Source of the DNA: Pristiophorus japonicus
Lineage: Eukaryota
Length of the DNA: 64,000 nt
Reading direction: 5' to 3'
NCBI RefSeq assembly: GCF_044704955.1
Contig: NC_091988.1
Coordinates: 43,896,001-43,960,000 of the forward strand
The position numbers and the translations under genes were made by a program. Positions 9,681-49,879 of the stretch are shown here, piece by piece (the stretch's first letter is position 1; each line of letters starts with the position of its first letter). Below the pieces are notes generated by a model. The model was not told the origin of the DNA and made no database searches. It worked only from the letters and a program-made list of their open reading frames with translations.

Positions 9681-12114
9681 AGCCAAGAAATTGGATAAGG
9701 CCCGAAAATGGGCACAGGTATCATGATGCGCGATTACCCCGCCTCCCGTTGAATCCAATGCAAGCAGCCTGCAAGTTTCATACTGCCTGCTAATTAATAT
9801 GATTGCAGAGGTAAGGAAGTGCTAAATGTGCTGTTCAGTGGCTTAGCACCTCAGCAGGGGGCCTAAGTTTGTGCAAAGCTTACAGCAATTAAAACTAGCC
9901 TGCACTTCTTAAAGGCAGCCTGCACCTCTTAAAGGGGAGCTGCATTCTGGCTTCAGTGGGTGATGGAAGTGACTGGAAAACAGACTGAGGAGCAAGAAAA
10001 CTGCGTGATGTCGCAACATGGCAGAGAGAGAGCACCCAGAGTCTCAGGCACGGGAGGTGGATAGGAGAAGAGAGATCCTCTATCCACAGGGTGCTAGGAG
10101 ACACTCCAGACAAACTGTGAGAAGGCATTGGGACCAGATAGCTGTTGTGGTCAATGCGAGCATTGTAGCTCCGAGGGCCTGGATACAATGCCACAAGAAA
10201 TGTAATTACCTTACACTAGTGGTCAAGATCAGTGAATTCATCTTCAAATGCCATATCCTTACAACTGAACCACTAAGCTCACACATTGCTCAATTCACCA
10301 CCACCCTGCTTCACTCACTTACCAACAATTTCTATCAATCATAACTTATATATCTAACATTCATAACTTCACCTCACCCTCACACCCTCAGACACTTAGC
10401 ACTGCTACAAGCCTCACACCCACCTCTCACAGCTTGCATACACTGCCAGTTATTCAACCAGCACAGCCACATCAGCCAAACACTGTGAACTTCACTCACT
10501 GACACACTTCCCTCTCTCTTGGCAGGACATGATGGTGCATAACAGGGAGCAGCTGCAGCTAACTGGAGGGGGGCAGGCCCGCCTCCATATCCTGACCCCG
10601 CTTGAGGAGACGATGCTTGCCATAATTGGAGTGACTGAAGCCATGGCCAGTGGTGGTGCTGAAAGCAGCGAAGATGACGGTATTCTCTTACCTAATCCTC
10701 CTTCTCACATCCCACTTCCCCCTCATCCCACATTCTCTTCTGATTTACAAGCTGCAGATGGTGTGAGCATGCACCTCTTGCTTTATCCCCACCCTCCCCC
10801 TCATCACAACCCTACCCTTGTGCCTTTCTCATTTCAGGGACCCAAGAAATCCAACCTGGCCAGCCAGTGGTGCAAGAGAAAGAGGAGAGTGACGATGAAG
10901 AAGAAACACTGTCACTCGATCTGACACTTGCAGCCATCAGCTCAGATATTGCCACTGCTCGGACTTTAGAGGGTAGTTAGAGGTGGGATCTGCATGTGTC
11001 ACTGTGCACAAGTAGGCTGCAGCCAGGGCAGGGGGAAAGGGAAGCACAGGGTAAGATGAGGTCGCACATGAGTTCGGCTGCACAGGACTCAGTTGAGGAC
11101 TTCGATAGGGCGACCAGCAAAAGAATGCTAATGGGTATGCACAATGAGATGCTTGGTGCATTGGCAGAACTGCCAGAAAGCCTGAATGCAATGTCAAGGT
11201 GCATGGAGGAGTCCAGCTCCAATCTTGCACAGGGCTTTGCGCAGAGCGTGGAAGGGTTGGGCAGATCCATTCGGTCACTTGTGGACCCAACCCGCATGCA
11301 GTGTCCGATGGCCGATGTCTCAGCTTCCACTGCAGCACAAGCAGCATCCACCCAATGAGTGCAGCTTGCTACCATACAAGCACAAACTGCTGCCGTCGTG
11401 GCTGGGTTTACCAGTGTTGAAAGGGGCTTGCAGCCTCCCACAGATTACTAGGATTGCTGAGGTGCCAGTCCGGAGGAGTGGCGGTGCCTCCGTGTGTGAC
11501 GATCCTGCTATTCTCTCTCAGGGGCAGCATTTGTCCTCCCACCACTGTCACTCCGGCACCGCCCTCACTGTTGCCTGTCAGCCAGTCAGCCCAGACTGCT
11601 GCCGCCCATGCCAAGATGGTGCAGTCTGAAGCCGAGCCTTCTAGGCCCAGAGCAGCTCGGGGTCCTCCTGCAAGGCCATCGGCAGTCTCCCCCAATGAAA
11701 GTCAGCCATGCTGCAACCACTGAGGTAGCACTGCATAGGAGCACTAGGACAGAGCACCAAACATTGTACAAACTCAGCAACAGCCAGTAGAAATCAATCA
11801 ACAGCTAACCTGTAAATAGGTGATGATCTCTTTATATAGCGCTGGTGGTGGGGTCCTTCCTGCTGCTGAACACATATTGTACGAGGTTAAGAGAGGGCGT
11901 TAGCTCCAGCATTGAGGTTGAAAATAGTAGCACTGGTGCCAAATCAGCGTTGACGTCATGATTTTCCTATTCTGCATACTACCGCCGCACACCCCCAGCA
12001 CCGACGCTAACGCCCTCACCAAAATAAAGTCCGGCGTGACTCAAATGCTAATTTGGACACAAAACGGCGTCTCCAGAACCGAAAAACCGATGCTAAGGAG
12101 TTGAATTTCTAGTC
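9681..12114 (+). mobile_element. Non-autonomous Harbinger carrying only the Myb/SANT gene
   Basis: Degenerate TIRs (agccaagaaatt ... gaatttctagtct), an internal three-exon Myb-like gene, and no transposase remnant seen. Confidence 0.7.
10018..11760 (+). pseudogene. Harbinger Myb/SANT-like DNA-binding protein (exons about 10018-10227, 10526-10679, 10838 onward), disrupted
   Basis: Exon 1 'EVDRRREILYP..HWDQIAVVVNA..PRAWIQCHKKCNYL' and exon 2 'QLTGGG..ILTPLEE'. AG acceptors end at 10525 and 10837; the first donor is mutated (ATCAGT). Confidence 0.8.
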
Positions 12115-14862: not shown

Positions 14863-14898
14863 TGCTTTTTGTAAGTACTTTTATACATATGTGTCCAT

Positions 14899-17803
14899 GG
14901 GCTAGATTTCACACTTTTGTGCAGATCGCCCCAAAATGGGCGGTATTTACGGTGTGGGCGGTAACAATGGGTTTTCAGATCGCCGGCATGTTGCCCATTC
15001 TCAAAGCCCCTAGTCTCATTTTAAAAATTGGGCGTTACCATGAGCGATCTGAAATGGGCGTTAGCATTAAATCTCTGACCTTCTGTCGTAAAGTGTCGCC
15101 GTCCTTAGCAACGGCATGGCAATGCTCGTTTCCCATGATTCAGGAGGTCAGGGGTCATCATTATATGCGCAGAAGAGGAGACAGAGAGAGAGGGAACAGA
15201 GAGGGACTGAAAGCATGTGTGGGTGTGGTGTGTGCTTGTTTTGTTGCTGTGGGAAGCACGAGGGAAATTCACCAGCAGCAAAAAGCCTACTAAGCACCCA
15301 GGACATAGTTGGCACCAAGCCTTTGTCCAACAAATAATATATAATATGGAAGGGATGGAGGAGGCCCTGGAGCTAGTAGCCAGCAACACTGGTGGCAGAG
15401 GGCTCCCACTGGTCCCGGAGCACGGCACTGCACCCCAAGGTGCCGCACCCCCATTGCCAACCACACGAGAGCCAGGAGCAACATCTTGCTTCTGGCTCGG
15501 AGCACATTCCCATCTCAGGACCGTCCTCTCCCGTATCCGTCCAAGCAGCGGTTCGGCTATCATCCCCGCCCCCCCCCCACACCCCCGGCCCCCCCCAATG
15601 AAGCAGTGCCGGAGGAATTCCTCGGCCGGGCGGCTTGGAGTCAGGAGGGGAAGGGGTAGAGGTGGGGTGGAGAAGCGGGGGGGAAAGATTGGTTTTTACA
15701 GATACACTTATGATTTCAGACAAATGTTCGCTTTAAATGTTTTTTATTTAACAAAACCTTGTTGCGCATTGGCTCAGATAGCTGCACTGGTGATTCCTTA
15801 ACATCAAAGGGTATAATTACACTTACCTTCAATCAACTTAAACTTTAACTGTCACCAAGGTGATGCCCACCATTGATGTATGACCTGTAAACCCAGCAGT
15901 GTGTCAGCCTTGTAAATACCACCAACGTTCTTTCAGGCAAAGTGCTTATTTATGAGCTCTGACGTAAAAGTCTTGCAGCTATCATGCCACCATGGCTCTT
16001 TCATGCGATCTACAGGGGGGCGGGTGGCATGGCTTCAGCATCAGCCTGATTGCCTGAGCCGATGGCAGCATCCACCTCCTCGTCCTCCTCTTCCTCTCTC
16101 TGGTGAGGTGGACTGTCAGACCCTTCTGGTAATTCTTGTTCCCTCCTGACAGCCAAGTTGTGCAGCATGGAGCACACCACCACGAATTGAGCTACGTGTT
16201 CAGGGTGGTATTGGAGCTCGCCTCCTGAGTGGTCCAGGCATCTATAGTGCTGCTTAAGCACTCCAATAGTTTTCTCCATGATATTGCGAGTGGCTCTGTG
16301 GCTCTCGTTGTATCACTTCGCGGCTTCGGTGTGGGTATCACGCAAGGGGGTCATCAGCCAGGTGGCGAGGCCATATCCTTTGTCACCAAGCAGCCAGCAT
16401 TGACCTTGTGGCTGATTGATAAACAAGTCAGATGCAGTGCTCTCACGCAGGATGTGAGCATCAAGGATGCTGCCCGGAAATTTAGCATTCACTGCCATAA
16501 TAATATGCTGGTGGTCGACAATGAGTTGCACATTCAGGGAGTGGGATCCCTTGCGGTTCCTGAAAACCTCTGCATCCTGAAATGGTGCCCGCATCGCGAT
16601 GTGCGTACAGTCTATTGCTCCCTGCACCTTGGGGAAGTTTGCAATTCGGTAAAATCCTAGAGCCCTCTCAGTCTGAGCCTCCCTGGTCATAGGGAAGCTG
16701 ATAAAGTCCATCCTGCATGCGTACAGGGCTTCAGTTATCTGTCTAATGCAGCAATGTGTGGCATGCTGAGACATACCGCAAATGTCACCATCTGAGGCCT
16801 GAAAAGAATCCGACGCGTAGAACGACAGTGCCGCGGTGACTTTAACCTCGACGGACAGTGCGGTCCTGATCGTGCTGGCAGGCTGCAGATCTCCCTTTAT
16901 GAGCTGGCATACCTCAGTGATAACCTCTTTATGGAAGCGCAGTCTCCGAAGGCAGGTGGTGTCGGGCAGGTTGAGGTAAGACCGCTTCTTCCTATATTTG
17001 CAGGGGGTATAACATCTGGTCCTCCTCTTCAGTCTAGCATGTCTTACATTGTGCACATGATGCTGTGGAGCATACCTTCTGCCATCTCGAGTCTGCAGCA
17101 TGTAATTGGTCATCAAGAGAGGGTGAGAAAGGACAGGCCCCATTCCAATAGCTATCTGTTTTCCACCGATTGGTCAAAAAGAATACATGTCCCAATGAAG
17201 ACAACTCTTAAATTCCATTCGTCCACAGTATGATAAAGATGTTTGTTCAGATGTTCACATCACCTCCAAGTATATCCAAACTCCCCAGAGGTTGAAGCAG
17301 AGTTGCCTTTTAAATGATGCAAAATGTGATTTAGAACATGGCATCCATACCGCTGTGATTAGTTCTGCTTAGTTCCACTTTTTCCCGGCGTTTTTTTGGG
17401 CGAGCGATATTGTGGGCGAAATGTATGTGAGGTGGTGAAAGTGACGCTGGGCGATCTCCTGGACGTTAGTTTCGGCAAATGTGATCTTTACGACAAAATA
17501 AAGTGGGTGGGTGGTATTATTGAATCTCGGCGTTAATTCCGTGCGGAAGGTAACACTGGGCGATATTATGGGTGTTAGTTTCACCCATTCTGATGATTCC
17601 ACCCAAAAAAAGTGGGCAGGCGGTATTATTTTTTCCCGGCGTTATGCACATGGGGAAAGTAACGCTCGGTGATAAGTGTCCGAAAAATGGGCGTCAGTTT
17701 CCATTTTGTGACTAAATGGGCGATATCTGGGCGGTATACTTCATTTCAGCGGTAAAATGGATGTTAAATGGACGTTATGCAAAAAAAGTTTAAAATCTAG
17801 CCC
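14899..17803 (-). mobile_element. Harbinger transposon with the transposase retained and the Myb gene mostly deleted
   Basis: TIRs GGGCTAGATTT...AAATCTAGCCC with an exact CAT TSD (14896-14898 and 17804-17806). Confidence 0.93.
15933..17143 (-). pseudogene. HARBI1-type DDE transposase with an in-frame nonsense codon at 16313-16315 and a frameshifted tail
   Basis: Motifs CLRRLRF, GAIDCTHI, NRKGSHSLNVQ, GDKGY, EKTIGVLK and CSMLHNLA. ORFs 16313-17143 and 16010-16279 are in the same frame. Confidence 0.93.
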
Positions 17804-18994
17804 CATATGTTTTCTGGGATTCAAAATAATTGGTTTAATTTCCTCCTTCAAGTTCCACTTTGTAAATTGTATAATAAAATCAATTAAAAATTCAGTTTAT
17901 TTCTTATTTATATCTAGCAATCGTTCTTGAAATACAACTTAATGCTTGGGTGTTTTACAACAGTTTATTTTAAATACTATACATATCTGACAATGGATTT
18001 TGAGTGTTATTATTTAACAGCCTCAAGATAATTTAACGATGTTAATAGAGTTTCAAGCTTTACATAAAATCCAATGTTTTCCCTGTCTTTTCCCTCAGGT
18101 TAGCCACCTGTACCAGTGCTTATGTCCTTGGTCAGGAGTTGCTGATGCCATTCCTTAGTTGACCCATCAGGAGGTGTCCATAAAGGATGTAGCAAGTGAT
18201 CCCACCCTGGCAATCTTTCCTTCCCTCCTTCCCCAATTGATGTGGCGGAGACTATAACCTTACATAGAATCATCGAACAGTACAGCACAGATGGAGACCA
18301 TTCATCCCATTGTGTCTGCAATGTTTTATCTGTGTTTTTTAAACAATTATTTTTCATCAAAGGAAACTGGGATAGATTTTCAACTTATCACCAGGTGTAG
18401 AAGTGGGGTTGCAGATCCCCCCTTTGCCCACCCCCTTATAGAAACTGATGGATTTTTATTTGCATTCAAATCAATGGAAAGAAAATTTGATGATTTCTGT
18501 AACAGGCCGATCTGTAATGCATTTTTATGAGCAGTTGAAAATCTATCACACTGTGACCAGACTAACATTCCTGCAACAGCTGAGAGTGTAGTGCTCTATT
18601 GCTGTAGATACTGGGCCACCTTAATCCTGATCGCCAAACGGGGCATCTTTATCAGCCTGCGTACAGCATACCAACAATTTCAATGTGCTGATGCAACATT
18701 GTTCACCAATTTTCTACAACTCACCTCTTTTTCTAAAGGCATTTGCTGGGTTACAGTTCACCAGGCACAGGCACATTCCAATATCACCCCCAAATGCCCA
18801 GTGGCAATCGGGGGGAAATGTTCTTGCTACATTTATGAAATCACACACAATTGCCAGAAGAAATCTTCCCACACATTACTTATCTATCATTCCCTTTTTA
18901 TGTTTTTCTTTGCTAGCAGGGTTGTCATGGTAGCCACAGATAGATGACTGCGATCAAATCATGTGACCTGAACACACAAGTAGCAGATATTTCA

Positions 18995-20125
18995 ACAACA
19001 AAAGTTTCATTTATATAGCGTCTTTAATGTAGAACAACGTCCCAAGGTGCTTCACAGAAGCGTAACCAGAAATAAATGGACATCAAACCAAAGAAAGAGA
19101 TTTTAGGTGGGGTGTTGAAGGGTGTGACCAAAAGCTTGGTCAAAGAGGTGGGTTTTAAGGAAGGTCGTAAAGAAGGAAAAGAAGGTGGAGAGACAGGGGT
19201 TTAGAGAAAGATAAACCATCAGCGGCAGGTTGGGGCCATAAAAGAAGTGGCCTCGGGAGCAACGGCAGTGAAGAGTGACATCAGCAAGGTCCAGGTCAGT
19301 GATTGGAGCGCGGGTAGATACAGCAGGAGCGGCGATATCGGGGCGAAGGAACTGTGAGAGACTGTGGAGGGATGTGATCGGGGTCCAGAGGAGGCATGAG
19401 TTCATGGCCCAGGGGCAGCACAGGCCAGCCCACACTGCGATATGTGTGCGCACTAGGTCCGTGCAACAGAGCAGGTCTCCAGTTGTCTTGTGTAGTCCTT
19501 GTCACTGGACCAAGACCTAGCTCTGTCAAGCCCGTGAGGTGGCTGGTGTGCAACGGCCACCACACATTAAAAAAAATCCACGCACAGGCATCTTCCACCC
19601 TTGAGGATATAGTTCAGGTTCTTCATTTGAAACACCTGTGAACTCATCCTTTTTTTTGGCGTGGAAGCAAGTCATCCTCGTTTCGAGGGACTGCCTATGA
19701 TGATGATGATGATGAGGGAGGGTATTCTGGAGCATGGCACCTAGATGGCTGAAGGCACCGCCGTCAATGGTGGTACAAAAAGAGGACAAATGCACAAAAG
19801 GCCAGAGACGGAGGAGGCTTTATCAGGGTTGTAGGGCTGGAGGAGGTTAAAAGAAAAGGAGGGGTGAGGTCAAGGATGAGAGTTCTAAATTGGAGGCATT
19901 GGGAACATTGAGCCAATGTAGATCAGCGAGTACAGGGGTGATAGGTGAGCAGGACCTGTTGCGGTTTAAGATTCAGGCAGCAGAGTTTTGGAAGAGATTA
20001 AGTTTATGGTGGGGGTAGACGGCCAGGCGAGCATTAGAATAATTGAGACTGAAGGTGAAGAAGGAACGGATGAGGGTTACAACAGCAGATGGACTGAGGC
20101 AGGCACAGAAGTGGGTGATGTTACA
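18995..20125 (-). mobile_element. L2-type LINE 3' fragment interrupted by an RTE-tailed element
   Basis: Tail 'catttatatagcgtctttaatgtag'; the sequence resumes after 19715 as 'gggagggtattctggagc'. Confidence 0.75.
19217..19715 (+). mobile_element. Non-autonomous retroposon (SINE-like) with an RTE-derived 3' tail
   Basis: The 3' end gtggaagcaagtcatcctcgtttcgagggactgcctat(gat)n matches the RTE ends at about 7820-7868 and about 35250-35295; there is no coding similarity upstream. Confidence 0.75.
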
Positions 20126-20137
20126 AAGGTAAAGAAA

Positions 20138-20510
20138 AAAGAAAGACTTATATGGTGCCTTTCATGATCATCGGCTGTCTCAAAGCGCTTCATAGCCAAT
20201 GAAGTACTTTTGGAGTGTAGTCACTGTTGTAATGTAGGAAACGCAGCAGCCAATTTGCGCACAGCAAGCTCCCACAAACAGCAATGTGGTAATGACCAGA
20301 TAATCTGTTTTTTGTTATGTTGATTGAGAGATAATTATTGCCAGGACACCAGGGATAACTAGCCTGCTCTTCTTCAAAATAATGCCATGAGATCTTTTAC
20401 GTCCACTTGAGAGAGCAGACGAGACCTCGGTTTATAATGGACAGGTTAGAAGCAGGAACATACAACCTTCAGACTCAGAGGTGAGAATGTTACCCACTGA
20501 GCCACAGCTG
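20138..20510 (-). mobile_element. Deu-domain tRNA-SINE
   Basis: Reverse complement of the 4258-4612 body; tRNA-like head remnant at about 20455-20510. Confidence 0.85.
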
Positions 20511-21400
20511 GAAGTAACCACTCTTTATGATGGAGAAGGAGTTTGTGGCGATGGTCAGATTTCCCCGCAACAGCAAGATTGCCGACATACACCATAAAAC
20601 TCGTGGTCCAGTGAGCTGATCTTGCCATTGCTAACTTGCTACAAATATTGCTGATTTTCTAATGAGACTACATTGCAGCAAGCATAGCGACGAATCAGGC
20701 AATCTAAGAGCTGAAGTGTCGGCACATTCACCATCAGGTGGCAAGGCAAGGTATCCGCGAATGGAAGTGTAACTTCTCAAATCAACTTGAATCTACAATT
20801 ATTTTCAGCTGTCATGTCCCTTTTTGAGTTGGGAGATTTTTGTCAGTTTCACTGCTGTATGCGATCTATGACTATAGGCCACTCCAAATCACTGCATTAG
20901 AAATTATTAATAATTTAGAAATAAAATAATTATTGACTTTTATTTTAGTGCATTATGAGGCCATAAAATGAGCTAAGCAAGCTAACCTTGAACTTTCAAC
21001 TTATTGAATATTTCTGGTTTTGAATGAAACTGAAGATCACAAATCTTTGTGGAAAGTGAAAATGTATCGTGACATGCTGGCTTTCCTCTGAGGAGATGGG
21101 CTTGAAATGTTTTTGAGGTATTTGATGTCCATCTACTCATAATTGATGTGATGGTTAATAAAGAAATTAGAAAAGATATGTTTGTTGTATTAGTGGCTTT
21201 CGCGAGGTTGGAGCACTGGGGCCATTTAAATTCAGAAAAGAATCTCACAAATTGAATGTTCTTCAGATATAATGGTATTAAAATAGAAAATGGACCCTCA
21301 GATTCTGGTTGCTTAATCTTTGCCAAGGTAGTACATTTTTAACGACTGGAACTTTAAACCCAATCTTGAAGCAAGAAATCACGCTGCAACGAGCCTTATG

Positions 21401-22375
21401 TGTCAACCTTGGCTGAGTGGTAGCACTCTTACCAAAGAGTCAGTGTGGGTATAAATCCCACTTGAGGAGTTGAGCACATAATCTAGGTTGATTAGTGCAG
21501 TACGAAGGGAGTGCTGCAATGTTGGATATACTGCCTTACGGATGAGACATTAAACCGAGGCCCCCGTCTGCCCTCTCAGGTGTGTGTACAAGATTCTAAG
21601 GGCCCGAATTTGGTGGAAGTTAAGTTTCGCCCAAGTGCCGCCCAAAGGACCGCCGAGATACCTGGCGGTACTTTAGGAGGCAGTTTCGTTGAAAAGTCCT
21701 GCAATGACCGGCCAGCGGCAAAAAAACAACTTATGCCATGATTCTGAGCGGCAGCGTGCGGGAGTCCCAATCTCGGCGGCAAATGCAATCCTCGGCAAAG
21801 TACCACCAAGGATTGAGTCGGGCCCAGGGAGTGGGGGGAGAAACATAAAATTAAAAATTTACATGAAAAAAATACACTGGAAAGCCTTTAGGGGACCCCA
21901 TCCACCTGAATCGCTGTAAAAAAAATAAAAGAAGTTTACTATCCTTTTTTTGCAGGTCTTCATTCTTACCGTTGAGTTTAGACATGGCTCCACGTGGCGG
22001 TCCTTCCCCCTGCTGGCACCGACTCCCGCCCGGAGCAAACTGGCAGCTCGGTTGGCGAGAGGACACTTGCGCGCATTGCGCACTAGGGGACATCAGCGGG
22101 TGGTTCCCAGCGCTCCTCCCTCCCCGCCAGCAGGAGGCCTCCACCAAACTGGCACCGAGGGGAGACTGCCCAGAAAACTCGGCGGCAGTGGGCAGTGAGT
22201 CCACCAAGTTCGGGGCCTGTGGCACCAATAGAAGAAAAGCAGGGGAATTCTTTCAGTGCCCTTGCCAATATTTATCCCTCAGCCAATATCAAACACATCT
22301 CACTGCTGTTTGTGAAGCCATGCTACGTGTCCTGAGCTCATGAAAGGTATTATATAAATGCAAGTTTTTTTCCTT
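21401..22375 (+). mobile_element. Deu-domain tRNA-SINE interrupted by a MITE
   Basis: tRNA-like head (tggctgagtggtagc..), Deu core up to 21599, resuming at 22218 (tggcacc..gaagaaaagcagggg..gccaatattt). Confidence 0.8.
21600..22217. mobile_element. Harbinger MITE, family A
   Basis: TIRs GGGCCCGAATTTGG / CCAAGTTCGGGGCC; colinear similarity to 59382-60024. Confidence 0.85.
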
Positions 22376-23019
22376 CTTTGCCAGGCCACTTAGACCCTTA
22401 TTTTTAAATCTAAGTGGCTTCATTGCAGAAAAATCACGATCGCCAATGATTTTCATGGAACGGGGCTATGATAATTACCGTCAAACCGTTTTTAGCAGAG
22501 CTGCACAAAAATTCCAGAAAAAGATGGAGCTCCATAATTAATGGCGTAAGTCACTCCATAATGTCCTTTTTCTTTTGCGCTATTTATAGCCCCCAGGAAA
22601 ACAATCGTACAAGTCCACAGGAAATTCTGTGCCATTGGCTTCACTCTTCCTCATGTATGACTCTGAAATGTTTGAGAAAGGCTGTACTCAACATTCATTA
22701 TTACTGTAGTAAGCAAGTCAGAAAATGTTAGAAAACCCAGCCATTCCGAATTCACAATGAAAATACTTTATTGGCTGTGAAGCGCTTTGGGATGTCTTGA
22801 GGTTGTGAAAGGTGCTATATAAAGGCAAGCTCTTTCTTTTGTTTGATATGTATGTTAACGAAATGCTCCCAAAATCTGTCTTGCTTCCATCTCATGAAGA
22901 CTTATATATTAAGAAATGTGATTTATATGATTTTCTGCACAAATACAGTTGTAATGTATGCACCTGTGAGTATGCTCACAGGTTTGTAGAGCTGTTGACT
23001 CGGGTGCTGGTGCCTCACA

Positions 23020-23810
23020 ACTTGAGCCTCCTCTGGGAAATCCCCTCCGTGCCTTTCAGTTTTACGCAGAGGGGATTTCTGTACGGGCTGCTCATACACA
23101 CTCTCCACTTTGCCATCCTTCTCTGCCATCCAGACACACCATGGTGCACCATTTTGCCATCCGGAGGAGGCAGGGGTCCCCAATGGAGTGCTCTCTACGT
23201 GGTAGAACTCCCTTTATTTATTGGGGACTTGGCCTGGAGGGTGTTGTACGGGGCAGTCCTGTGCAATAGGTTTTTAAGTAGATTCACGGACTCCCAGGCC
23301 GCCTGGATTTTTTTCTGCAGTCTAGAAGAGTCCGTGTTCCATGTCTATGTTGAATGTGTGAGGTTGAAGCCCCTGTTCCATTATTTAAAGGGGCTGCTCC
23401 TTAAATTTTGGCTGCAATTCAGACCCATGCTCCTGATCTTTGGACATCCTGTGCGGAGAGGAGTGAGCAGGTCGGAAGGCCTCCTCGTAGGAATGCTTCT
23501 GAGCCTGGCCAAGGTGGCCATTAACCAGTCCAGGCAGCGGGCGGTCGAGGGGGTCATTCAGCCTGACTGCCTGCCTCTCTTCCACGGTTATGTTTGCGCC
23601 AGGGTGTCCCTGGAGATGGAGCACACGGTGTCCACCGGTATGCTCGTGGCCTTCCATGAGAGGTGAGCACAGGAGGGACTGGAGTGCATCATCACCTCCG
23701 GCAACCAAATTTTAATTTGACCGATTATTGTTTTAAAAGTTTTATTGGTTAATTTGTCGGTTCTAGTGCCCCTTTTTAAAGGGGACACTTGATTTATTGT
23801 TTTACACCAA
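23020..23810 (+). mobile_element. Tx1/L1-type LINE 3' fragment (C-terminal zinc-binding region)
   Basis: 'DTPW...W.ALY...GDLAWRVLYGAV..N.F....C..EESVFHVY.EC.RL' within ORF 22812-23666. The ORF N-terminus is non-TE read-through. Confidence 0.8.
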
Positions 23811-23816
23811 AATAGT

Positions 23817-24056
23817 TGTAGAGCTTTTGAAATGGGAGTGGCTTAGCCAGTCACGTGATGTTCACAAGACTCAATAAAACCCCAGCCAGTTGGGTTCAGG
23901 GGATCCATGATGAGGCAGGTGGTTGTGAGCCTGGTGGATAAATTGATAATGTGTAGTGTGATTGTTAAACATTTTGCTAATAAACCAATTAGTTCTTAAT
24001 AGCAATGTGTTGCTATGAATTCTTAAGCAAAGAACCCATGAAGCAAATACATTACA
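23817..24056 (+). mobile_element. Solo LTR (240 bp)
   Basis: TGTA...TACA termini, near-perfect 5-bp TSD ATAGT/ACAGT, internal AATAAA. Confidence 0.75.
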
Positions 24057-24560
24057 ACAGTTAATTAATTTGACAAAAGTGTGAGAATGAGATTGCAACA
24101 GAAGAAAGTAATGTATTTCTTTACAGCAGATTAGATGAATCATCAATCCTAATGACCTTTGTAGGACTTGAAAAGAAACATAGAGTACATTACACTGCAG
24201 AACATTCTGGACACACAAAAAAACAAACTAATTTTCCCCAGTTATCTGCGCTGTTTTTTTTGTGTAAATTAACATCTCCCAGTTTTCCCAAAGTTTCTGC
24301 AGCGTAACTCAGTTAAGTATGATTTGTTTTTCACATTTAAGCAAGTTTGGCCAACTTACATTTTTCCGAGGATGGCGTATGTGACCACTCCCAAAATACC
24401 CTCTGGGCACTTCCTGTTCTAAGCAAGCCTATTGTGCATGCACATCGAGGGTGTGGTTCATACTAGGGCGTCGACCTTGGGGAGAGAGAGAGAGAGAGCA
24501 AAGAAGGTTTGAGTGCTTTGTCCTGCTGTTTTGAGCATCTTGCAAAGCTACAATTTAATT

Positions 24561-24963
24561 ATGGGGGCAATATTGACAACACCATATCTCATGCAAGGCT
24601 TCTGCATGATTGGGCTGCAGAGCAGAAGATTGATTGGACATCATCGCGTGAGGAACCTCAGAGCACGTAGCATGATGGGCAGGAGGCCTTACCCACATTG
24701 GGTATATCAAGACATGCATTCATACCTGCACCTGAGTGATGCAGACTGTGTGAGAAGGCTGCGTTTCCGCAAAGAACTTGTAACCGAGATTTATGAGATA
24801 ATAAAAGCAGACCTGCACCCTAAAAGCATCAGGAGGACGGCTTTGTCAATTGAAGTAAAGGTTACAGCTGCACTTTCCTTTTATGCTTCTGGATCTGGGG
24901 ATGTGTGCGCCATTTCTCAACATGCAACACATATCTGCATTCGGCAGATGACTGCTGCACTAT
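24561..24963 (+). pseudogene. Harbinger transposase N-terminal half
   Basis: 'RRPYPH..SYLHLSDADCVRRLRFRKE...KVTAALSFYASGS...IRQMTAALY', then an abrupt switch to CR1 sequence. Confidence 0.9.
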
Positions 24964-26580
24964 ACCAAACAGTAACTATATTGTTGGACGGAGTATAAAT
25001 CAAGAAATAATGGAGGCTTGTAATAAAGGAACGGCAATAATCATGGGTGATTTTAACCTTCATATTGATTGGACAAAGTAAATTGTCCAGGGTAGCCTTG
25101 AGAAAGAGTTCATAGAGTGTATCCGGGATAGTTTCCTTGAACAGTACGTTGCAGAAACAACCTTGGAGCAGGCTATCTTAGATCTGATACTGTGTAATGA
25201 GACAGGATTAATAAATGATCTCATAGTAAAGGATCCTCCAGGAATGAGTGACCATAACATGGTGGAATTTCAAATTCAGTTGGAGGGTGAGAAAGTTGGT
25301 TCTCAAACCAGTGTCCTAAGCTTAAATAAAGGAGACTACACGGGATGAGGGCAAAGTTGGCTGAAGTGGACTGGGAAAATAGACTAAATTATGGGACGGT
25401 TGATGAGCAGTGGCAGACATTTAAGGAGATATTTCATAACTTGCAACAAAAATATATCCCAATGAGAAGGAAAGACTGTAAGAGAAGGGATAACCATCCG
25501 TGGCTAACGAAGGAAATAAGGGAAGGTATCAAATTGAAAACAAGGACATACAATGTGGCCAAGACTAGTGGGAGGCCAGAGGATTGGGAAACTTTTAAAA
25601 GCCAGCAAAGAACGACTAAAAAAATGATAAAGAGAGGGAAGGTAGATTATGAAAGTAAACTAGCATGAAATATAAAACAGATAGAAAGAGTTTCTACAGG
25701 TACATAAAAAGGAAAAGAGTGGTTAAAGTAAATATTTGACCCCTAGAGGATGAAACTGGAGAATTAATAATGGAGAACAGGGAAATGGCAGAGACGTTGA
25801 ACAAATATTTTGAAATGGTCTTCACGGAAGAAGATACTAAAAACATCCCAATAGTGGATAATCAAGAGGCTATAGGGAGGGAGCAACTTAATACCATTAC
25901 TATCACTAAAGAAATAGTACGCGGTAAAATAATGTGACTAAAGGCGGACAAGTACCCTGGACCTGATGGCTTACATCCTAATGTCTTAAAAGAAGTGGCT
26001 GGATTCCGGGGCGGTCCCAGCGAATTGGAAAACCGCAAATGTAACGCCCCTATTTAAAAAAGGAGGCAGACAAAAAGCAGCAAACTATAGACCAGTTAGC
26101 CTAACATCTGTCATTGGGAAAATGCTGGAGTCCAATATTACGGAAGTTGTAGCGGGACATTTGGAAAAGCATAATTCAAAAAAGCAGAGTCAGCATGGTT
26201 TTATGAAAGGGAAATCATGTTTGACAAATTTGCTGGAGTTCTTTGAGGATGTAACGAGCAGGGTGGATAAGGGAAACCAGTGGAGGTGGTGTATTTGGAT
26301 TTCCATAAGGTATTCGATAAGGTGCCACATAGAAGGTTACTGCACAAGATAAAAATTCACGGGGTTGGGGGTAATATATTAGCATGGATAGAGGATTGGC
26401 TAACTAACAGAAAACAGGGAGTCGGGATAAATGGGTCATTTTCCAGTTGACAAACAGTGACTAATGGGGTGCCGCAGGGATTGGTGCAAAATATTTTAAT
26501 GGCTTGGATGAAGAGACAGAGTGCAATGTAACCAAGTTTGCTGATGATACAAAGATGGGTGTGAAAGCAAATTGTGAGGA

Positions 26581-26725
26581 AGGAGTATAGGGTTATGGGG
26601 AGCGGGCAAGGAAGTGGAGCTGAGTCCATGATCAGATCAGCCATGATCTTATTGAATGGTGGAGCAGGTTCAAGGGGCCAAATGGCCTACTCCTGCTCCT
26701 ATTTCTAATGTTCTTATGTTCTTAT
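26581..26725 (+). mobile_element. Short CR1 3' tail inserted into the CR1 RT region
   Basis: 3' UTR plus ttcttatg repeats interrupt 'tgtgagga|gacacaaaaaatc'. Confidence 0.8.
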
Positions 26726-26991
26726 GACACAAAAAATCTTCAAAGGGATATAGACAGGCTAAATGAGTGGGCAAATATTTGGCAGATAGCGTATAATGTG
26801 AGAAAATGTGAGATTATCTACTTTGACAGAAAAAATAGAAAAACAAATTATAATTTAAATGTAGAAAAATTGCAGTACAAAGGAACCTGGGGGTCCTTGT
26901 GCAAGAAACACAAAAAGTTATATGCAGGTACAGCAATTAATCAGGAAGGCAAATGGAATGTTGGCCTTTATTGCAAGGGGGAATAGAGTGT

Positions 26992-28028
26992 AAGAAACAT
27001 AAGAACATAAGAAATAGGAGCAGGAGTAGGCCATATGGCCCCTCGAGCCTGCTCTGCCATTTAATGCGATCTTGGCTGATCCGATCATGTACTCAGGTCC
27101 ATTTTCTTGCCCGCTCTCCATAACCCCTTATTCCCTTATCGGTTAAAAAACTGTCTATCTCTGTCTTAAATTTATTCAATGACCCAGCTTCCTCAGCTCT
27201 CTGAGGCAGAGAATTCCACAGATCCACAGCACTCTGAGAAAAGAAATTCCTCCTCATCTCAGTTTTAAATGGGTGGCCCCTTATTCTAAGATTATACCCC
27301 CTAGTTCTAGTCTTCCCCATCAGTGCAAACATTCTCTCTCCATCCACCTTGTCAAGCCCCCTTATAATCTTAAGATCCCTCTCAATCTTCTGTATTCCAA
27401 TGAGTATAGGCCCAACCTACCCAACCTTTCCTCATAAGTTAACCCCCTCATCTCTGGAATTAACCTAGTGAACCTTCTCGATCTGCCTCCAAAACAAGTA
27501 TATCCTTTCGTAAATATGGAAACCAAATCTGCACGCAGTATTCCAGATGTGGCCTCACCAATACCCTGCATAACTGTAGCAAGACTTCCCTGCTTTTATA
27601 CTCCATTACTTTGCAATAAAGGCCAAGATTCCATTGGCCTGCCTGATCACTTGCTGTACCTGCATACTAACCTTTTGAGTTTCATGCACAAGTACCCCCA
27701 GGTCCCGCTGTACTGCAGCACTTTGCAATCTTTCTCCATTTAAATAATAACTTGCTCTTTGATTTTTTTTTCTCCTAAAGTGCAACATTATACTCCATCT
27801 GCCAAATTTTTACCCACTCACTTAGCCTGTCTATGTCCTTTTGCAGATTTCCTCCTCACACATTGCTTTTCCACCCATCTTTGTATCATCAGCAAACTTG
27901 GCTACATTACACTCAGTCCCTTCTTCCAAGTCGTTAATATAGATTGTAAATAGTTGGGGTCCCAGCACTGATCCCTGCGGCACCCCACTAGTTACCGAGT
28001 GCCAACCCGAGAATGAACCATTTATCCC
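26992..28028 (-). mobile_element. CR1 LINE 3' part in reverse orientation
   Basis: Minus-strand ORFs 27093-27347, 27362-27571 and 27606-27788; (ATAAGAAC)n tail at the left. Confidence 0.9.
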
Positions 28029-28807
28029 AGAGAAATCCTGTTACAACTGTACAGGGTATTGATGAGGCCACACCTAGAGTACTGCGACCAGTTTTGGTCT
28101 CCGTATTTAAGGAAGGATATACTTGCATTGGAGGCTGTTCAGAGAAGGTTATTCTGGAGACGATGGAGTTGACTTATGAAGATAGGTTGAGTAGGTTGGG
28201 CCTATACACAGAAGAATGAGAGGTGATCTTATCGAAACATGTAAGATAATGAGGGGGCTTGACAATTCCCACTCGTAGGGGAAACTAAAACTAGGGGACA
28301 TGGGGCTAGAAACTCCACTTATTTTGCATGCTTAATGCCCACTTAACGCCCGTTTTACCGATAAAATGATGTATAACGAACGCCCATATATGGCCCATTT
28401 TGGCACAAAATGGAAACTGACGTTTTTTTTTAGGAGACTTATCGGCGAGCGTTATTTTCCAAAGGGCTTAATGCCGGGAAAATATATTACCGCCCGCCAA
28501 CTTTTTTGGGGCAGAATCAGCAGAATGGGCGAAATCAACGGCCATAATATCGCCCAGAGTTACTTTCCGCACGGAATTAACGCCAAGATTCAATATGAAC
28601 GCCCGCCCACTGTTTTTTGTTGTAAAGAGCATATTTACCCAAACTAGCGGCCATGGAGATCACCCATCTTCAATTTCACCACCTCGCACACATATCGCCC
28701 ACAATATCACTCGCTCACAAAACCGCCATCAAAAGTGGAACTAACCAGAATGAACGCCAGCGGTGTGGCTGGCATTTGTTAAATCCCACTCTTATATGAG
28801 GAGCTGA

Positions 28808-31113
28808 TATTGTGTAATGAGAGAGGATTAATTAGCAATCTTGTTTGGCGAGGCCCCTTGGGGAAGAGTGACCATATGGTAGAGTTCTTCATTAAGATGG
28901 AGAGTGTCACAGTTAATTCAGAGACTAAAGTCCTGAACTTAAAGAAAGGTAACTTCGATGGTATGAGACATGAATTAGCTAGGATAGACTGGCAACTGAA
29001 AATTAAAGGGTTGACAGTGGATAGGCAATGGCAGACATTTAAAGATCACATGGATGAACTTCAACAATTGTACATCCCTGTCTGGTGTAAAAATTAAACA
29101 GGAAAGGTGGCTCAACCGTGGCTTACAAGGGAAATTAAGGGTAGTGTAAAATCCAAGGAAGAGGCATATAAATTAGCCAAAAAAATCAGCAAACCTGAGG
29201 ACTGGGAGAAATTTAGAATTCAGCAGAAGAGGACCAAGGGTTTAATTAGGAGGGGGAAAATAGAATATGAGAGTAAACTTGCAGGGAACATAAAAACTGA
29301 CTGCAAAGGCTTGTACAGATACGTGAAGAGAAAAAGATTAGTGAAAACAAATGTAAGTCCCTCACAGTCAGAATCAGGTGAATTTATAATAGGGAACAAA
29401 GAAATGGCAGACCAATTGAACAAATACTTTGGTTCTGTCTTCACTAAGGAAGACACAAATAACCTTCTGGAAATACTGGGGGACCGAGGGTCTAGCGAGA
29501 AGGAGGAACAAAAGGAAATCCTTATTAGTCAGCAAATTGTGTTAGGGAAATTGATGGGACTGAAGGCCGATAAGTCCCCAGGGCCTGATAGTCTGCATCC
29601 CAGAGTACTTAAGGAAGCAGCCCTAGAAATAGTGGATGCATTGGAAGTCATTTTCCAATATTCTATAGACTCAGGATCAGTTCCTTTGGACTGGAGGGTA
29701 GCTAATGTAACACCACTTTTTAAAAGGGGAGGGAGAGAGAAAACAGGGAACTATAGACCGGTCAGCCTGACATTGGTGGTGGGGAAAATGTTGGAATCAA
29801 TTATTAAAGATGTAATAGCAGCGCATTTGGAAAGCAGTGACAGGATCGGTCCAAGTCAGCATGGATTTATGAAAGAGAAATCATGCTTGACAAATCTTCT
29901 AAAATTTTTTGAGGGTGTAACTAGTAGAATGGACAAGGAGGAGTCAGAGGATGTGGTGTGTTTAGACTTTCAAAAGGCTTTTGACAAGGTCCCACACAAG
30001 AGATTAATGTGAAAAATTAAAGCACATGGGATTGTGGGTAATGTATTGACATGGATAGAGAACTGGTTAGGAGACAGGGAGCAAAGAGTGGGTATAAACA
30101 GGTCCATTTCAGAGTGGCAGACAGCAACTAGTGGGGTACTGCAAGGTTCAGTGCTGGGACCCCAGTTATTTACAATATACATTAATGATTTAGACAAAGG
30201 AATTGAATGCAGTGTGAGCTGTGAGGAGGATGCTAAGAGGCTGCAGAGGTGACTTGGACAGGTTAGGTGAGTGGGCAAATACATGGCAGATGTGGTATAA
30301 TGTAGTTAAATGTGAGGTTATCCACTTTGGTGTTAAAAACAGGAAGGCAGATTATTATCTGAATGGTGACAGATTATTAAAAGAGGAGGTGCAACGAGAC
30401 CTGGGTGTCATGGTACATCAGTCATTGAAAATTGGCATACAGGTACAGCAGGCGATGAAGAAGGCAAATGGCATGTTGGCCTTCATAGCGAGAGGATTTG
30501 AGTATAGGAGCAGGGAGGTCTTACTACAGTTGTACACGGCCTTGGTGAGGCCACACCTTGAATATTGTGTACAGTTTTGGTCTCCTAATCTGAGGAAGGA
30601 CATTCTTGCTATTGAGGGAGTGCAGCAAAGGTTCACCAGACTGTTTCCCGGGATGACAACACTGACATATGAAGAAAGACTGGATCGACTAGGCTTATAT
30701 TCACTGGAATTTAGAAGAATGAAAGGGGAGCTCATAGAGACATATAAAATTCTGATGGGGTTGGACAGGTTAAATGCAAGAAGAATGTTCCCGATGTTGG
30801 GGAAGTCCAGAACAAGGGGTCACAGTCTAAGGATAAAGGGTAAGCCATTTAGGACCGAGATGAGGAGAAACTTCTTCACTCAGAGAGTTGTGAACATGTG
30901 GAATTCTCTACCACAGAAAGTTGTTGAGGCCAGTTTGTTAGATATATTCAAAAGGGAGTTAGATGTGGCTCTTATGGCTAAAGAGATCAAGGGATATGGA
31001 GAGAAAGCAGGAATGGGGTACTGAAATGCATGATCAGCCATAATCATATTGAATGGTGGTGCAGGCTCGAAGGCCGAATGGCCTATTCCTGCACCTATTT
31101 TCTATGTTTCTAT
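28808..31113 (+). mobile_element. CR1 LINE, 2.3 kb, 5'-truncated, ORF2 fragments
   Basis: ORFs 29107-30012 (KSPGPD, NYRPVSL, QHGF, LDFQKAFD), 30034-30252 (GVLQGSVLGP) and 30221-31024; the FADD region is deleted; TTTCTATG tail. Confidence 0.95.
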
Positions 31114-31579
31114 CTGAAAGATTTGCCTGAAAGAGCGCTGATGTGAGTGACAATGCTGACACACTGCTGTGTGTGTGCAGCTCAAATATCAATGGTGCTC
31201 ATCATCTTGGTGCCAGTTAAAGTTTACGTTGATTGATGTTAAGTTGTATTTAACCCTTTCATGATAAGGATACACCAGTGTGTAAGGGTCCAGCTATCTG
31301 AGACAATGCGCAACAAGGTTATGTTCAATAACAAAAGTATAATACTAACACTGGGCAGAAATCATAAGTATCACAGCCAATAACACCCAACCCCCGCCCA
31401 CACCCCACTTTTTCCACCATTGACATAAATCACATGTTCAACATGTCCAGCAACACAGAATACAAAGGCAAAGCAGGACCATGGTCCCTAGCCCCCATAC
31501 ATTGCAATAAATTGCATACACCCAGATGCAGCTATAACACAGCCATCACCTGCACACATGCACCTCACTTTCCTTCCCC

Positions 31580-33379
31580 CCTCTCCTTCTTCTCCCCAAG
31601 TCTAGCCCATCCCCTTCTCGCTCCACGGTGCCTGGCCGAGGAGCTCCTCAGGCGCTGCCTCATTGGGGGAGGATGAAGGCAGATGCGGTCGCTGTGTGGG
31701 TACGGGAGCGGAGGGGTGCCGAGGGGGCAACATTGTCTGATGCAGAAGCAGGATCTTGGTCCTTGCTCTCATCTGTCGTTCGCAGTGATGGTGCGGAACC
31801 TAGGGGTGGAGTGCCGCGCTCGGGGACCACTGGGAGGCCTGTAGCAGCAGTGTTCCTGGCTATCGCATCCAGGGACTCCACCATGCACGGAATGTACTCG
31901 GTCATGATGGCCAGTTGCCTGGATATGCCCCCCAAAGCTTCGATGAGCTGGTCACCTGGACAACTGTACCATCTCTCCACCGTCATGAGGTGCTCGTGTA
32001 ACAGACCTGTCACGTCCACGAAGCCTCACTGGGGTCAAATCTGTTCTGGGGACAAATGGGGTGCTCTGTGGCGAGGTGCTTGGGGCCGGTACCTCCAGAG
32101 TGGAGGCGGGAATGACCGGAGGACCACTAGATGGCCTTGGGGTGGAATGGCTTCTGGAGCGTGGCAATGCAATTTCTTCGAAGTCCGCGCTCTCATCCGT
32201 CGAGAACAGACCCAGTGGATTGACGGGCAAGAATCAGAGCTCCTCAGCACCAGATGTAGTAGGATCATCCGCCAACTTCTGCCCCGCGCCCCCAGCTTCT
32301 GGCCTCTGTGACCTTGCCCGGGGCTGCGCTGCTGGCTGAGCTGCAAGACACAAATGAGGTTATTAGAGGAGAAGGGGATGCTAGGGTGACAAGGTGAGTC
32401 CAGCGCTACACACAGCATATGCACGACAAAAGCACCACCGCTCTCAAAATCATCGCAGACATCACATTTCATGACCATCAACACATTGTGCATTGCAATG
32501 AGTTTCATTAGGCCAGCATTATTTCTATGACACTTTTAGAAATCATCTATCATATATGATTGTTTGGATATGAGTGGGTGTGGCATCTATAGACTTTACA
32601 TGACGCAATGGTGTAAGCTTTACTCACGTGGCTTTACTCACTTCAGGGTCTGCAGATGTGTCTGTGGCTGCCCGGGGGTGCTTCCCACAAGTGCGAGCAC
32701 TCGCTCCTCCATCTCTGTGATGTCGCTGGGGACTGGTGGGCCCCCCACCCGTTCGCCTCTGTATGGGCCTCATCGTCGATAGCTTCTTCTGTAAACGGTG
32801 ACTGGACGACATGGCATGAGATCTTTGCGTGATATCACTGCTAGGTACTGTCACAGACACTGATACAACTCATAACCCCGACAGATGTAATCATGATTAT
32901 TATGATTATTATCATTCTTTACCTAAAGACGTACACCATGACCGTGGGCTTTGAGTAAAACATTCCTGGTAAAAATGCAAGACCTCAATCTGCTGATAGT
33001 CACTCATGACTGTTACAAATCAAATTATATAAATACATAAGTACATGTAAATCAATGTAATACTTACTCTTGCGGATCCCACAAGGGCATTCCATCGATG
33101 GCAGCATTGGTTACCCTCACGCACCTCGTTGGTCGCCGACGAGACCACCTCTGCTATCTCGGTCCATATCCTCTGGTAGGCCTTTGGGGTGGGCTTCCCA
33201 CGCCCTCCCTGTGTCAAATCACCCCAGCGTAACTCGACATCCTGCAGCAGGGAGGCATTTGCCTTGTCCAAGAACCTCCTGGCTCTTCTGCGGCCTCCAA
33301 TGTGCTCCTCTCCCACCTCACTGCTCTCTCCAGCATCAGTCTCCACAGCGTGCTGTGATGCCTCCTCTTCTCTCTCCAT
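31580..33379 (-). pseudogene. Harbinger Myb/SANT-like gene (exons 33068-33379, 32642-32788, 32340 downward)
   Basis: 'RRRARRF.D..NASLLQ.VE..W.EIAE.VS....REGNQC..RWNAL' and exon 2 'RRTGGG'; canonical GTAAGT/GTGAGT donors and CAG acceptors; frameshifts in exons 2 and 3. Confidence 0.85.
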
Positions 33380-34121
33380 TATAGGGCAAATTCAGACATA
33401 TATATGAGGCTGGTAACAGCTCATTTTTGTTTGCCTACTTGCTGTGAAGCTCTAAAGTCTCCCTCCTTCCTCCCAAAGCAGCCACACCACACCCAGCCAC
33501 GCCTTCAGTCCCTCTGAGCGCCCTCTCTCTCTGTCTCCTCTTTTGCGCATGTCATGGTGACCCTTGACCTCGAGAATCGCGGGAATTGAGCGTTGCCATG
33601 CCGTTGCTAAGGACAGCCACACTTTATGGCAGAAGGCCAATAAAATTTAACTCTACCGCCCATTTTATATCGCTCCCGGTAACACCATTTTCAAAATTGG
33701 AGACTAGTTGGTTTGAGAATGGGCGAGAAGCCGACGATCTGAAAACCCCTTTTTTACCGCCCACGCCGGAAATATCACCCATTTTTGGGCGATAATCACA
33801 AAAGTGGAGATTCTAGCCCATAGTCTCTGAATAAGGGGCCGCCCATTTAAAACTGAGGTGAGGAGGAATTTCTTCTCTTAGATGGTTGTAAATCTATGGA
33901 ATTCTCTGCCTGAGGGAGCTGTGGAGGCTGGGTCATTGAATATATTTAAGGTGGCAATAGACAGATTTTTGACCGATAAGGGAATAAAGGGCCATAAGGA
34001 GCGAGCAAGGAAGTGGAAATAAGTCCATGATCAGATCAGCCATGATCTTATTAAATGAAAGAGCAGGATCAAGGAGTCAGGTGGCCGTCTCCTGCTCTTA
34101 TTTCTTATGTTCTTATGTTCT

Positions 34122-34894
34122 TATGCCCGGAGGAATGACTACATAAAGTTCCCCATGACCGCCCAGGCAATGCATAACAGGGCTGTGGGCTTCTTCAGGA
34201 TTGCTGGCTTCCCAAAGGTACAGGGCTGCATTGATTGTACCCACATCGCCTTGCGAGCACCTTTGGAGGATTCCAAGATGTACTGGAACAGAAAAGGCTT
34301 CCACTCCGTGAATGTACAACTCATGTGTGACGACATGCATCGTATCATGGCAGTTGATGCGAGATACCCTGGAAGCACCCATGATCGTACGCGAGAGGAC
34401 TATATCTGCCATGTTTCAGCAGCAGCCAGAAGGGCAGAGCTGGCTATTGGGATACGGCCTCGCCACCTGATTCATGACGCCCCTACACGTAACCCGGACG
34501 GAAGCTGACCTGGGAATACAACATGTCGCACATTACGATGCGCAGCATAGTAGCGAGGACCATTGGCATCTTGAAGCAGCGTTTCCTATGCCTGGACCAT
34601 TCTGGAAGCTACTTGCAATACTCCCCTGAGTGTGTCGGTCAGTTCACTATTGTGTGCTGCATGATGCATGACTTAGCCATCATAAGGCAGCAGCAGCTGG
34701 TCGTAGAAGACCTACTTGAGGTGAGAGTGGCTGATGATGAGGAGGAAGATGCAGATGACGAGGAGGAGGAGGAGGACGAGGAACCCATGGAACTACCTGA
34801 ACCCGGAGCATGACGGCGGAGGAGGGCGTGCCGTCCCTTTAACGATTGCGTGAGCCTTGCGCCAGCAGCTCATCCTGAACGCTTTGCTGCCTAA
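34122..34894 (+). pseudogene. Harbinger transposase C-terminal half (continuation of 24561-24963)
   Basis: 'YARRNDYIKFP..GFPKVQGCIDCTHI..NRKGFHSVNVQ..YPGSTHD' and 'IGILKQRF.CLD..CCMMHDLA', with an acidic tail. Confidence 0.9.
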
Positions 34895-43599: not shown

Positions 43600-44724
43600 A
43601 GCAATGAGCCAGCTGCCATAGGAGGAGCCGACCATATTGTTGGGGGAAGAATGCCCTAGCGTGCAAGGGTCTACAGGCAGCAGTTTTCATTCACTGACCA
43701 TACAGATGACCAATGTCTCCGCAGGCTTAGATTCAGGAAGGACATCATCAGGGAGTTGTGCAATCTCCTGTGGCCAGATCTGCAGCCTTAGACAAGGCTG
43801 AAGACAGCTCTGAGCATCACAACCAAAGTGACCATAGCACTAAATTTCTATGCCACTGGCTCTTTCCAATCTGCCACTGCAGACATTTCAAACATTTCTC
43901 AGTTCTCTGGCCATCGCTCCATCCGTCAAGTCACAGATGCTCTCTATAAGATAAGGGGCGAATACATTTCTTTCCCGACAAGCAGGAAGAAGCAGATGGG
44001 GCGGCAGACCGGATTTGTGCGCATTGCAGGCTTCCCCAGGGTACAGGGCGCCATAGACTGCACCCACGTCGCATTGAGGGCATCACAAACCAATGTGGGG
44101 ATGTTCATCAACCGGAAAGGATTCCACTCCCTCAACATGCAGCTGATGTGCGACCATCGCAAGATCATGGCAGTTGATGCCCGGTATCCTGGCAGCAACC
44201 ATGATGTCTTCATCCTGTGCCAGACCGATGTGCCCGGCATGTTTTCTGGGCCAAAGCAAAATTGCAGGTGGCTGCTTGGTGACAAGGGCTACACTCTGTG
44301 CACTTGTCCGCTGACTTCCCTTCGCAACACCAGGACTGCTGCGCAGCATGCATGCAATGACTCTCATTCTGTCACCAGGTGCATAATTGAGCACTGCATC
44401 GGGATCCTTAAGCAGACTGGACTGGACCGCTCTGGTGGAGTGTTGCAGTACTCGCCTGAGCGGGTCTCCCTATTCGTGGTCGTCTGCTGCATGCTTCACA
44501 AGCTGGCAATCATGAGAGGCCAGCCATTGGAGGATGAGCCAGCAGTAGCACCTCAGGATGCGGCATAGGAGGAGGAGGTGCAGGAGGAGGATGAGGAGGA
44601 GGAGGAGGTGGAGGAGTAGGAGGAGGGCCAGGATGTGGGTCGGCGGCCACCCAGGAGGCGTCGTCGCCATCCAAACCCTGCAAGGGAAGTGCAAAACCGT
44701 CTCACTGCTGCTCGTTTTCAATGA
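43600..44724 (+). pseudogene. HARBI1-type transposase, disrupted
   Basis: ORF 43828-44568: GFPRVQGAIDCTHV, NRKGFHSLN, YPGSNHD, GDKGY, IEHCIGILK, CCMLHKLA. Upstream CLRRLRF is followed by an in-frame stop. Confidence 0.92.
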
Positions 44725-45750: not shown

Positions 45751-45984
45751 TGTCATGTATTCAACCAACATTGTAACCCATGTATAAACTGACCTAAGTT
45801 GTGCACCGTGAGAACACTGACCACTAGGTGGGAGACACTCCTAACCTGGACCTTCAGGTATAAAAGGGGAAGCTCCACCCACCTTCATCACTTAAGTGCT
45901 AAGGGATAAAGGACAGGTCACAGACTGACCTTCTCTCAAGCATGGGCCTCGTGTGCATTTATACTGTATAGTAAGGACGTATCA
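45751..45984 (+). repeat. 5' LTR
   Basis: TGTCATGTAT...ACGTATCA; TATAAAA box. Confidence 0.97.
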
Positions 45985-46131
45985 ATGGCGACAAGAAACT
46001 GGGATTTAAACCACGCGAGCATGGCCACTAGCAGAACAGATGAGAGGTACTGTGTTAAGGAATGGTTGGGACAGAGATTCAACATTGTTAAAGCAGCACA
46101 CAGTTCTCCAGGCAGATAAGGGCAGTCAGGC

Positions 46132-49874: not shown

Positions 49875-49879
49875 AGCAC

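Follow-up and report, generated by a model that had tools for sequence, protein, structure and literature searches.

The window analysed here, a 64,000-nucleotide stretch of the Pristiophorus japonicus genome (NC_091988.1, positions 43,896,001 to 43,960,000), contains two related but incomplete transposons, A and B (Table 1). A sequence-only reading had described them as a complementary Harbinger pair, one keeping the transposase and the other its Myb partner. Their assignment to PIF/Harbinger holds: the DDE_Tnp_4 transposase, the Myb/SANT second gene, terminal inverted repeats (TIRs) and a 3-bp target duplication are all found.

Table 1. Mobile elements and their parts in the window (positions counted from its first letter)
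Feature	Position	Strand	Remarks
Element A, transposase-only Harbinger, subfamily A1	14899..17803	+	94.4% to A1 consensus
Target duplication of A, exact CAT/CAT	14896-14898 and 17804-17806		
A: Myb-side TIR and subterminal region	14899..15270	+	
A: Myb start codon joined in frame to 3' end of Myb exon 3	15346..15687	+	
A: DDE transposase gene	15932..17143	-	403 aa in family consensus
A: transposase-side subterminal repeats and TIR	17325..17803	+	
Element B, Myb-only Harbinger	28303..33819	-	3.2 kb without the LINE; 94.7% to B consensus
B: transposase-side end	28303..28788	-	
B: family-wide deletion junction	28789..28810	-	last transposase codons run straight into the end
Long interspersed nuclear element (LINE) within B, later insertion	28811..31113	+	2.3 kb, about 20 bp from deletion junction
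B: Myb exon 3, ends approximate	31600..32345	-	stop and 17-bp deletion in window copy
B: Myb exon 2	32635..32790	-	1-bp deletion in window copy
B: Myb exon 1, with Myb/SANT domain	33068..33379	-	
B: Myb-side subterminal region and TIR	33476..33819	-	
Transposase pieces of other Harbinger families	24561-24965, 34122-34708, 43666-44556	+	52-64% identical to that of A
Myb-like exons	10009-11630	+	Myb domain at 10009
Exon-3-like frame, then transposase C-terminal scrap	39478-40980	-	scrap at 40875-40980
Myb-like pieces near 50-52 kb	49990-51960	-	
Long terminal repeat (LTR) retrotransposon	45751-49875		98% identical 235-bp repeats, pol-like frame
Second pol-like remnant	313-1553	-	

The proposed content of both copies was borne out in the main. 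The transposase of A, whose TIR begins GGGCTAGA, matches Pfam DDE_Tnp_4 (PF13359, E 2e-19), a domain also carried by 60 homologues, the best public ones being shark proteins. The window copy keeps D, D and E, but its frame is interrupted by stops at codons 277 and 378. On the Myb side, a deletion removed exons 1 and 2, most of exon 3 and with them the DNA-binding domain, leaving a 338-bp exon-3 scrap fused to the start codon across a 6-bp microhomology (about 15360-15365). A role for this fused mini-frame as a functional peptide is unsupported, the ratio of nonsynonymous to synonymous changes (N:S) being 7:2 and the frame being broken by a variable poly-C tract. Element B has the three Myb exons and no transposase; the GT/AG sites of all three exons are intact and the reading frames are damaged. 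In this decayed copy the Myb domain (PF13873, E 0.004) scores 17.6 bits, below the curated Pfam cut-off of 21.7. The LINE inside B, which we take to be CR1-like, was absent from the earlier account. With two stops in the A transposase, and with the B Myb gene frameshifted and also interrupted by a stop and a 17-bp deletion, neither copy can function today.

The ends of A and B have 345 and 488 bp in common in opposite orientation, at 79 to 81% identity (E 3e-87 and 1e-116), and the two copies also share 249 bp of 3' region and, at 69%, the 338-bp Myb scrap. Thus the claim of shared TIRs and subterminal sequence stands, as does the CAT duplication of A. In contrast, B (28303-33819) is flanked by ATG/ATA, in which two of three bases match, and reading CAT there requires an asymmetric boundary shifted by 1 bp. 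B sits in the 3' segment of a LINE (28280-28302 and 33820-33900), at sequence that fits the target consensus; several other copies (L023, L030, L032, L033, L040 and L044) are flanked in the same way, which suggests a hotspot within that LINE.

Searches of the 5.9-Gb genome, mostly targeted and scoring the best 40 to 150 candidates, place both copies in large families. With all of A as query, most of the best 40 candidates were near full length at about 87%, and the consensus of 30 copies is a 2.9-kb element with an intact 403-aa DDE transposase. A DNA query of the transposase only found the A junction at all 26 assessable loci of 30. Among 30 loci obtained with B, the Myb half meets the end across an identical 21-nt gap in 19; four others have small local deletions, three a longer insertion and four no end in the flank. 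A Myb-only DNA query, which favours B over a 3%-different parent, family C, returned the B junction at 24 of 30 loci with no transposase adjoining, and the B consensus has an open three-exon Myb gene of about 406 aa. Both half-elements are therefore multi-copy with fixed breakpoints, as the proposal of the sequence-only reading requires, and the junctions recur across loci instead of being unique to this one. Long stop-free transposase frames persist in a few copies (L361, L365 and L376 in A, L332 in C).

Family C was reached from one B-query locus that ran on into a transposase. Its 4570-bp consensus, from 19 of 40 fetched regions, carries both genes and has a Myb half 97% identical to B. By this comparison, B is C minus its transposase and C its parent, with about 1350 bp of C removed at the B junction. 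In five further C-derived copies (L133, L157, L161, L208 and L225) the transposase match ends at one and the same point (A-consensus ~1378), a recurring deletion form. Three other two-gene forms, D1, D2 and D3, have an intact DDE triad and fit the canonical autonomous Harbinger. The trees are ladder-like, D1 being followed by D2 and then by A and C, so that D forms with intact DDE branch earlier; the grouping of A with C is supported at only 74%. The Myb deletion of A is already present in A2, a Myb-less form that came earlier, and its junction is common to A2, A1 and the further subfamily A1b. D1 has also given rise to family E, a second multi-copy Myb-only derivative of about 3.3 kb with its own fixed deletion (L230-L256, L295-L312).

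An end motif of 26 letters is matched exactly at 5139 places in the genome, against none for a control, and is kept in 28 of 133 sampled A, B and C copies, which suggests a total of roughly 20,000 to 25,000 elements. The first 30 matches on contig C1, a sample that leaves out D1, D2 and E, comprise nine Myb-less A copies, six junction-confirmed B copies, six C copies with transposase and one tandem duplicate, two C-type copies with other deletions, four Myb-bearing copies of unassigned type, one truncated copy and one to which we return below. About a third of this sample is of C type, which makes two-gene copies common and not rare. The sole reason that these common two-gene copies do not refute a division of labour is that the C transposase has lost its predicted catalytic residues.

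The consensus transposase of C is an open 402-aa frame with D176Q, N202K, H225D, D226E, K253N, G254R and E288Q/H. Residues D176, D226 and E288 are conserved in 47, 47 and 37 of 54 homologues, respectively, and are presumably the catalytic, metal-binding acidic residues; all three are changed in C. No solved structure was matched for the transposase. Among 272 distinct transposase copies, none of the 80 from the C lineage shows E288 (a few being unreadable or stops), and D176 is left in only three early ones. The order of decay can be read from nested intermediates: L416 and L418 show E288Q and N202K as the first changes, L346 adds H225D, D226E and G254R, and D176Q came after these. We infer that the C enzyme would be unable to cut, and we reject C as the autonomous parent on the loss of these predicted catalytic residues. 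One early C offshoot, L324 (G000:C7:4643273-4644496), only about 79% identical to the C consensus over the element, retains an unbroken 408-aa dead transposase frame (P0004); with a neutral-like N:S of 134:64 against C, it may have survived by chance or be a candidate gene for use by the host. The public protein P0004 was rejected as cross-species support for a dead enzyme, being encoded letter for letter in G000 at L324.

Selection on the retained genes was judged against changes of copies from their own consensus, since plain counting of the nonsynonymous to synonymous rate ratio (dN/dS, or omega) yields about 0.6 even in copies that decay neutrally. After the loss of Myb, none of 55 amino-acid changes in the A transposase fell on the 62 homologue-defined conserved sites (neutral 11.8%, p=0.001), nor did any of 52 in a larger A sample. 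On the C branch, 4 of 70 sites changed in the DNA-binding core of Myb versus 93 of 304 elsewhere (p=4e-6; copies 11.3% versus 12.1%), and the Myb exons took 177 substitutions with no stop and a single frameshifting indel versus 7.4 expected. Purifying selection on each retained gene is thus seen at conserved sites and in frame retention, not in whole-gene N:S. Positive selection at the transposase termini or in Myb is unsupported.

The halves also have ends in common that their interiors do not predict. While A and C/B differ by about 15% internally, A1 and C differ by only 3.8 and 6.5% at their two ends, and A1b and B by 5.0 and 5.2%. A1b and B have 8 derived sites on the left and 16 on the right in common, including a TIR variant at both ends, whereas sites in the Myb scrap follow lineage (39 unite C with B, none A1b with B). 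The shared ends are likely to reflect exchange of end sequences between the halves, and the late end variants occur in none of the D consensus sequences. A1, C and B have one palindromic target consensus in common. Exact 3-bp duplications flank 16 of 29 A1, 9 of 25 B, 7 of 17 C and 15 of 19 A2/D/E copies; mismatches at two or three of the three bases occur in 7 of 29, 9 of 25 and 6 of 17 copies versus 3 of 19, and several of these resemble 1-bp shifts. In the window itself, the ends of B match A1b and the A copy is A1, and A and B do not form a special pair as had been proposed. Their closeness is likely due to chance, because at the estimated element density such pairings within 64 kb are expected hundreds of times. 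Elsewhere, family members often adjoin each other, A beside B or C (L038/L122, L124, L126, L128, L180, L227 and L323), suggesting insertion next to earlier copies.

We consider it probable that an autonomous Harbinger of type D became a mutually dependent two-part system, each half spreading with the protein that the other provided, and that A and B are decayed copies of these halves. The sequences show that A lost its Myb gene by a single microhomology deletion, that the sister lineage C kept Myb while its transposase changed at E288 first and at D226 and D176 later, and that B is C without this transposase. Harbinger movement is described as needing both proteins, the Myb protein binding the ends and carrying the transposase into the nucleus (PMC2836001, as far as its accessible text goes), and the A enzyme may have joined the C/B Myb protein in trans at the shared ends, mobilizing A, B and C alike. 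By exchanging end sequences the halves could have become paired, A1 with C and A1b with B, their late ends being served by A and C/B proteins and not by D.

Several observations weigh against this scenario. Intact two-gene D elements exist: 22 copies were counted, and one of the 30 motif matches on C1 is D3-type by sequence, its transposase not having been seen. Private non-CpG divergence is 2.9 to 3.5% in all transposase-bearing families, and because these values overlap, extinction of D during the spread of A, B and C cannot be shown. The A1, A1b and D3 copies were chosen by similarity, which biases their ages young, and private divergence gives no firm order of families. Nor does the scenario account for masters that have diverged by as much as 15% when the ages of the copies lie within 1 point of each other. 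The whole-frame N:S of A is 59:36 versus a neutral 2.0 (p=0.33), the transposase core reaches a relative omega of 0.36 to 0.39 (p about 0.005) in a region picked post hoc, and Myb from D3 to C is neutral-like (relative omega 1.10), as in the autonomous D lineage. Other Harbinger families are present in the window, and Ping and Pong proteins are reported to cross-complement at 62 to 77% identity (available text of PMC2836001). For selection to work on a half whose protein acts in trans, some link between source and progeny would further be needed. The sequence-only proposal of a bipartite system is upheld in part, in its multi-copy, fixed-breakpoint halves, intact consensus genes and selection at conserved sites; two-gene copies proved common, and whole-gene dN/dS was not significantly below the neutral control (A transposase, p=0.28 to 0.44; Myb relative omega, 1.1).

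A tentative extension, which we regard as possible, is a selfish system of three components that followed the split of an autonomous Harbinger. Selection would have retained the dead transposase of C as a pseudo-enzyme, whether as a subunit of the complex that does not cut, as a decoy or as a brake; catalysis would have come from a separate lineage without Myb, and the partners would have co-evolved through exchange of their ends. In support, E288Q is present in the earliest intermediates (L416 and L418), yet the frame stayed open. No frameshift accompanies 180 C-specific substitutions versus 7.5 expected from the lineage's own non-coding rate (P about 5e-4), part of these substitutions predating E288Q; with only the 84 covered changes after E288Q, P is about 0.012. 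However, B spread well without a transposase gene, conserved sites of the C transposase were not spared (7 of 78 changes, neutral-like) and its later N:S of 50:34 is not significantly below neutral (p=0.16).

The main rival, which we think unlikely, holds that D-type elements or another Harbinger family moved A, B and C as ordinary non-autonomous passengers with dispensable genes. D has both an intact DDE and Myb and overlaps A, B and C in age; D1 has itself produced a Myb-only family, E; N:S over whole genes is close to neutral; and cross-mobilization is documented (PMC2836001, accessible part). Such passengers would not be expected to spare conserved sites in A and the Myb core in C/B, nor to limit frameshifts in the Myb exons as described above, and the late end variants were unseen in the D consensus sequences.

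Improbable, in our judgment, is a rare autonomous master with an A1-type transposase and a C-type Myb that drove the burst. Transposase copies are estimated to number many thousands, of which just 272 were inspected, and end sharing does show that sequence passed between lineages. Against this, an A1/A1b transposase joined to Myb was found at none of 111 assessable loci (of 145 A1/A1b copies), two flagged loci proving to be neighboring B elements. This set derives in part from the biased whole-A query; its unbiased parts gave 0 of 26 for the DNA query and 0 of 47 for the protein query. Of the 90 protein-query loci, 57 were Myb-less, 25 unclear and 8 Myb-bearing, the last being seven D-type copies and one early C intermediate (L416), and the assessable intermediates from A2 to A1 are Myb-less. 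Both genes intact on one element is a state found only in D: A lacks Myb, B lacks the transposase and C has lost its residues. No contemporaneous autonomous source was found among the assessable A1/A1b copies, yet D is present with overlapping age. Finally, locus-specific decay with removal of the B transposase by the LINE, as the proximity of the LINE to the junction and the two broken window genes might suggest, is refuted by identical junctions in dozens of unlinked, LINE-free copies and can be set aside.

The split layout as such is already known from Harbinger-Snek and Caenorhabditis inopinata, where mutual dependence was left as a hypothesis. Domesticated Harbinger transposases such as HARBI1, ALP1 and HDP1 keep their frame, in the ALP1 type with loss of catalysis, but these are host genes, whereas C is a TIR-bounded, multi-copy mobile family. 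Within a literature search that had supplements, Repbase reports and most subscription papers outside its scope, we found no mobile Harbinger family that carries both genes and in which a dead transposase is fixed, and no precedent for an ordered time series, a conserved dead transposase or shared ends of the halves.

Among the closest systems are the Harbinger-Snek elements of sea kraits, where Laticauda colubrina is reported to have 2263 intact transposase-only and 452 Myb-only copies versus 269 full ones (PMC8437027). Families A and B qualify as solo open reading frame (ORF) variants of this type. Unlike our system, Harbinger-Snek has intact full elements, and its solo variants are termed possibly non-autonomous; the text consulted mentions neither a full form with a dead enzyme nor a test of selection nor sharing of ends ('purifying' has no match). 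In Harbinger-1M_cIno of C. inopinata, DDE and MADF functions are divided between elements and suggested to work in trans, but, in the accessible text, only the MADF half is expanded and one locus has an intact DDE gene (PMC13668399). Here, both halves are expanded, and a two-gene form with dead transposase and ordered intermediates are present. Harbinger3_DR and Ping/Pong with mPing resemble our elements in TIRs, 3-bp duplication and a DDE_Tnp_4 transposase with Myb/SANT partner and differ in having both genes on one element (PMC2836001 and PMC9179366, parts consulted). A Harbinger DDE mutant showed excision reduced about 150-fold (PMC2836001, same part). The accessible text of PMC9179366 reports no single-ORF Harbinger in teleosts and no Harbinger at all in elephant shark, and that of PMC5741667 describes a newt Harbinger expansion without split forms.

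What this genome adds is a preserved, ordered series from autonomous D1, D2 and D3 to A2, A1 and A1b on one side and C and B on the other, with nested intermediates. Such a series allows one to test whether a selfish element can give way to cooperating halves, how selection holds on a trans-acting protein and whether an element can profit from its own dead transposase. For annotation there is a warning as well: a full-length, two-gene Harbinger consensus with open frames is not necessarily autonomous.

The remaining mobile-element pieces of the window are listed at the foot of Table 1. Among them, the Myb-like pieces near 50-52 kb may pair with the transposase piece that starts at 43666.

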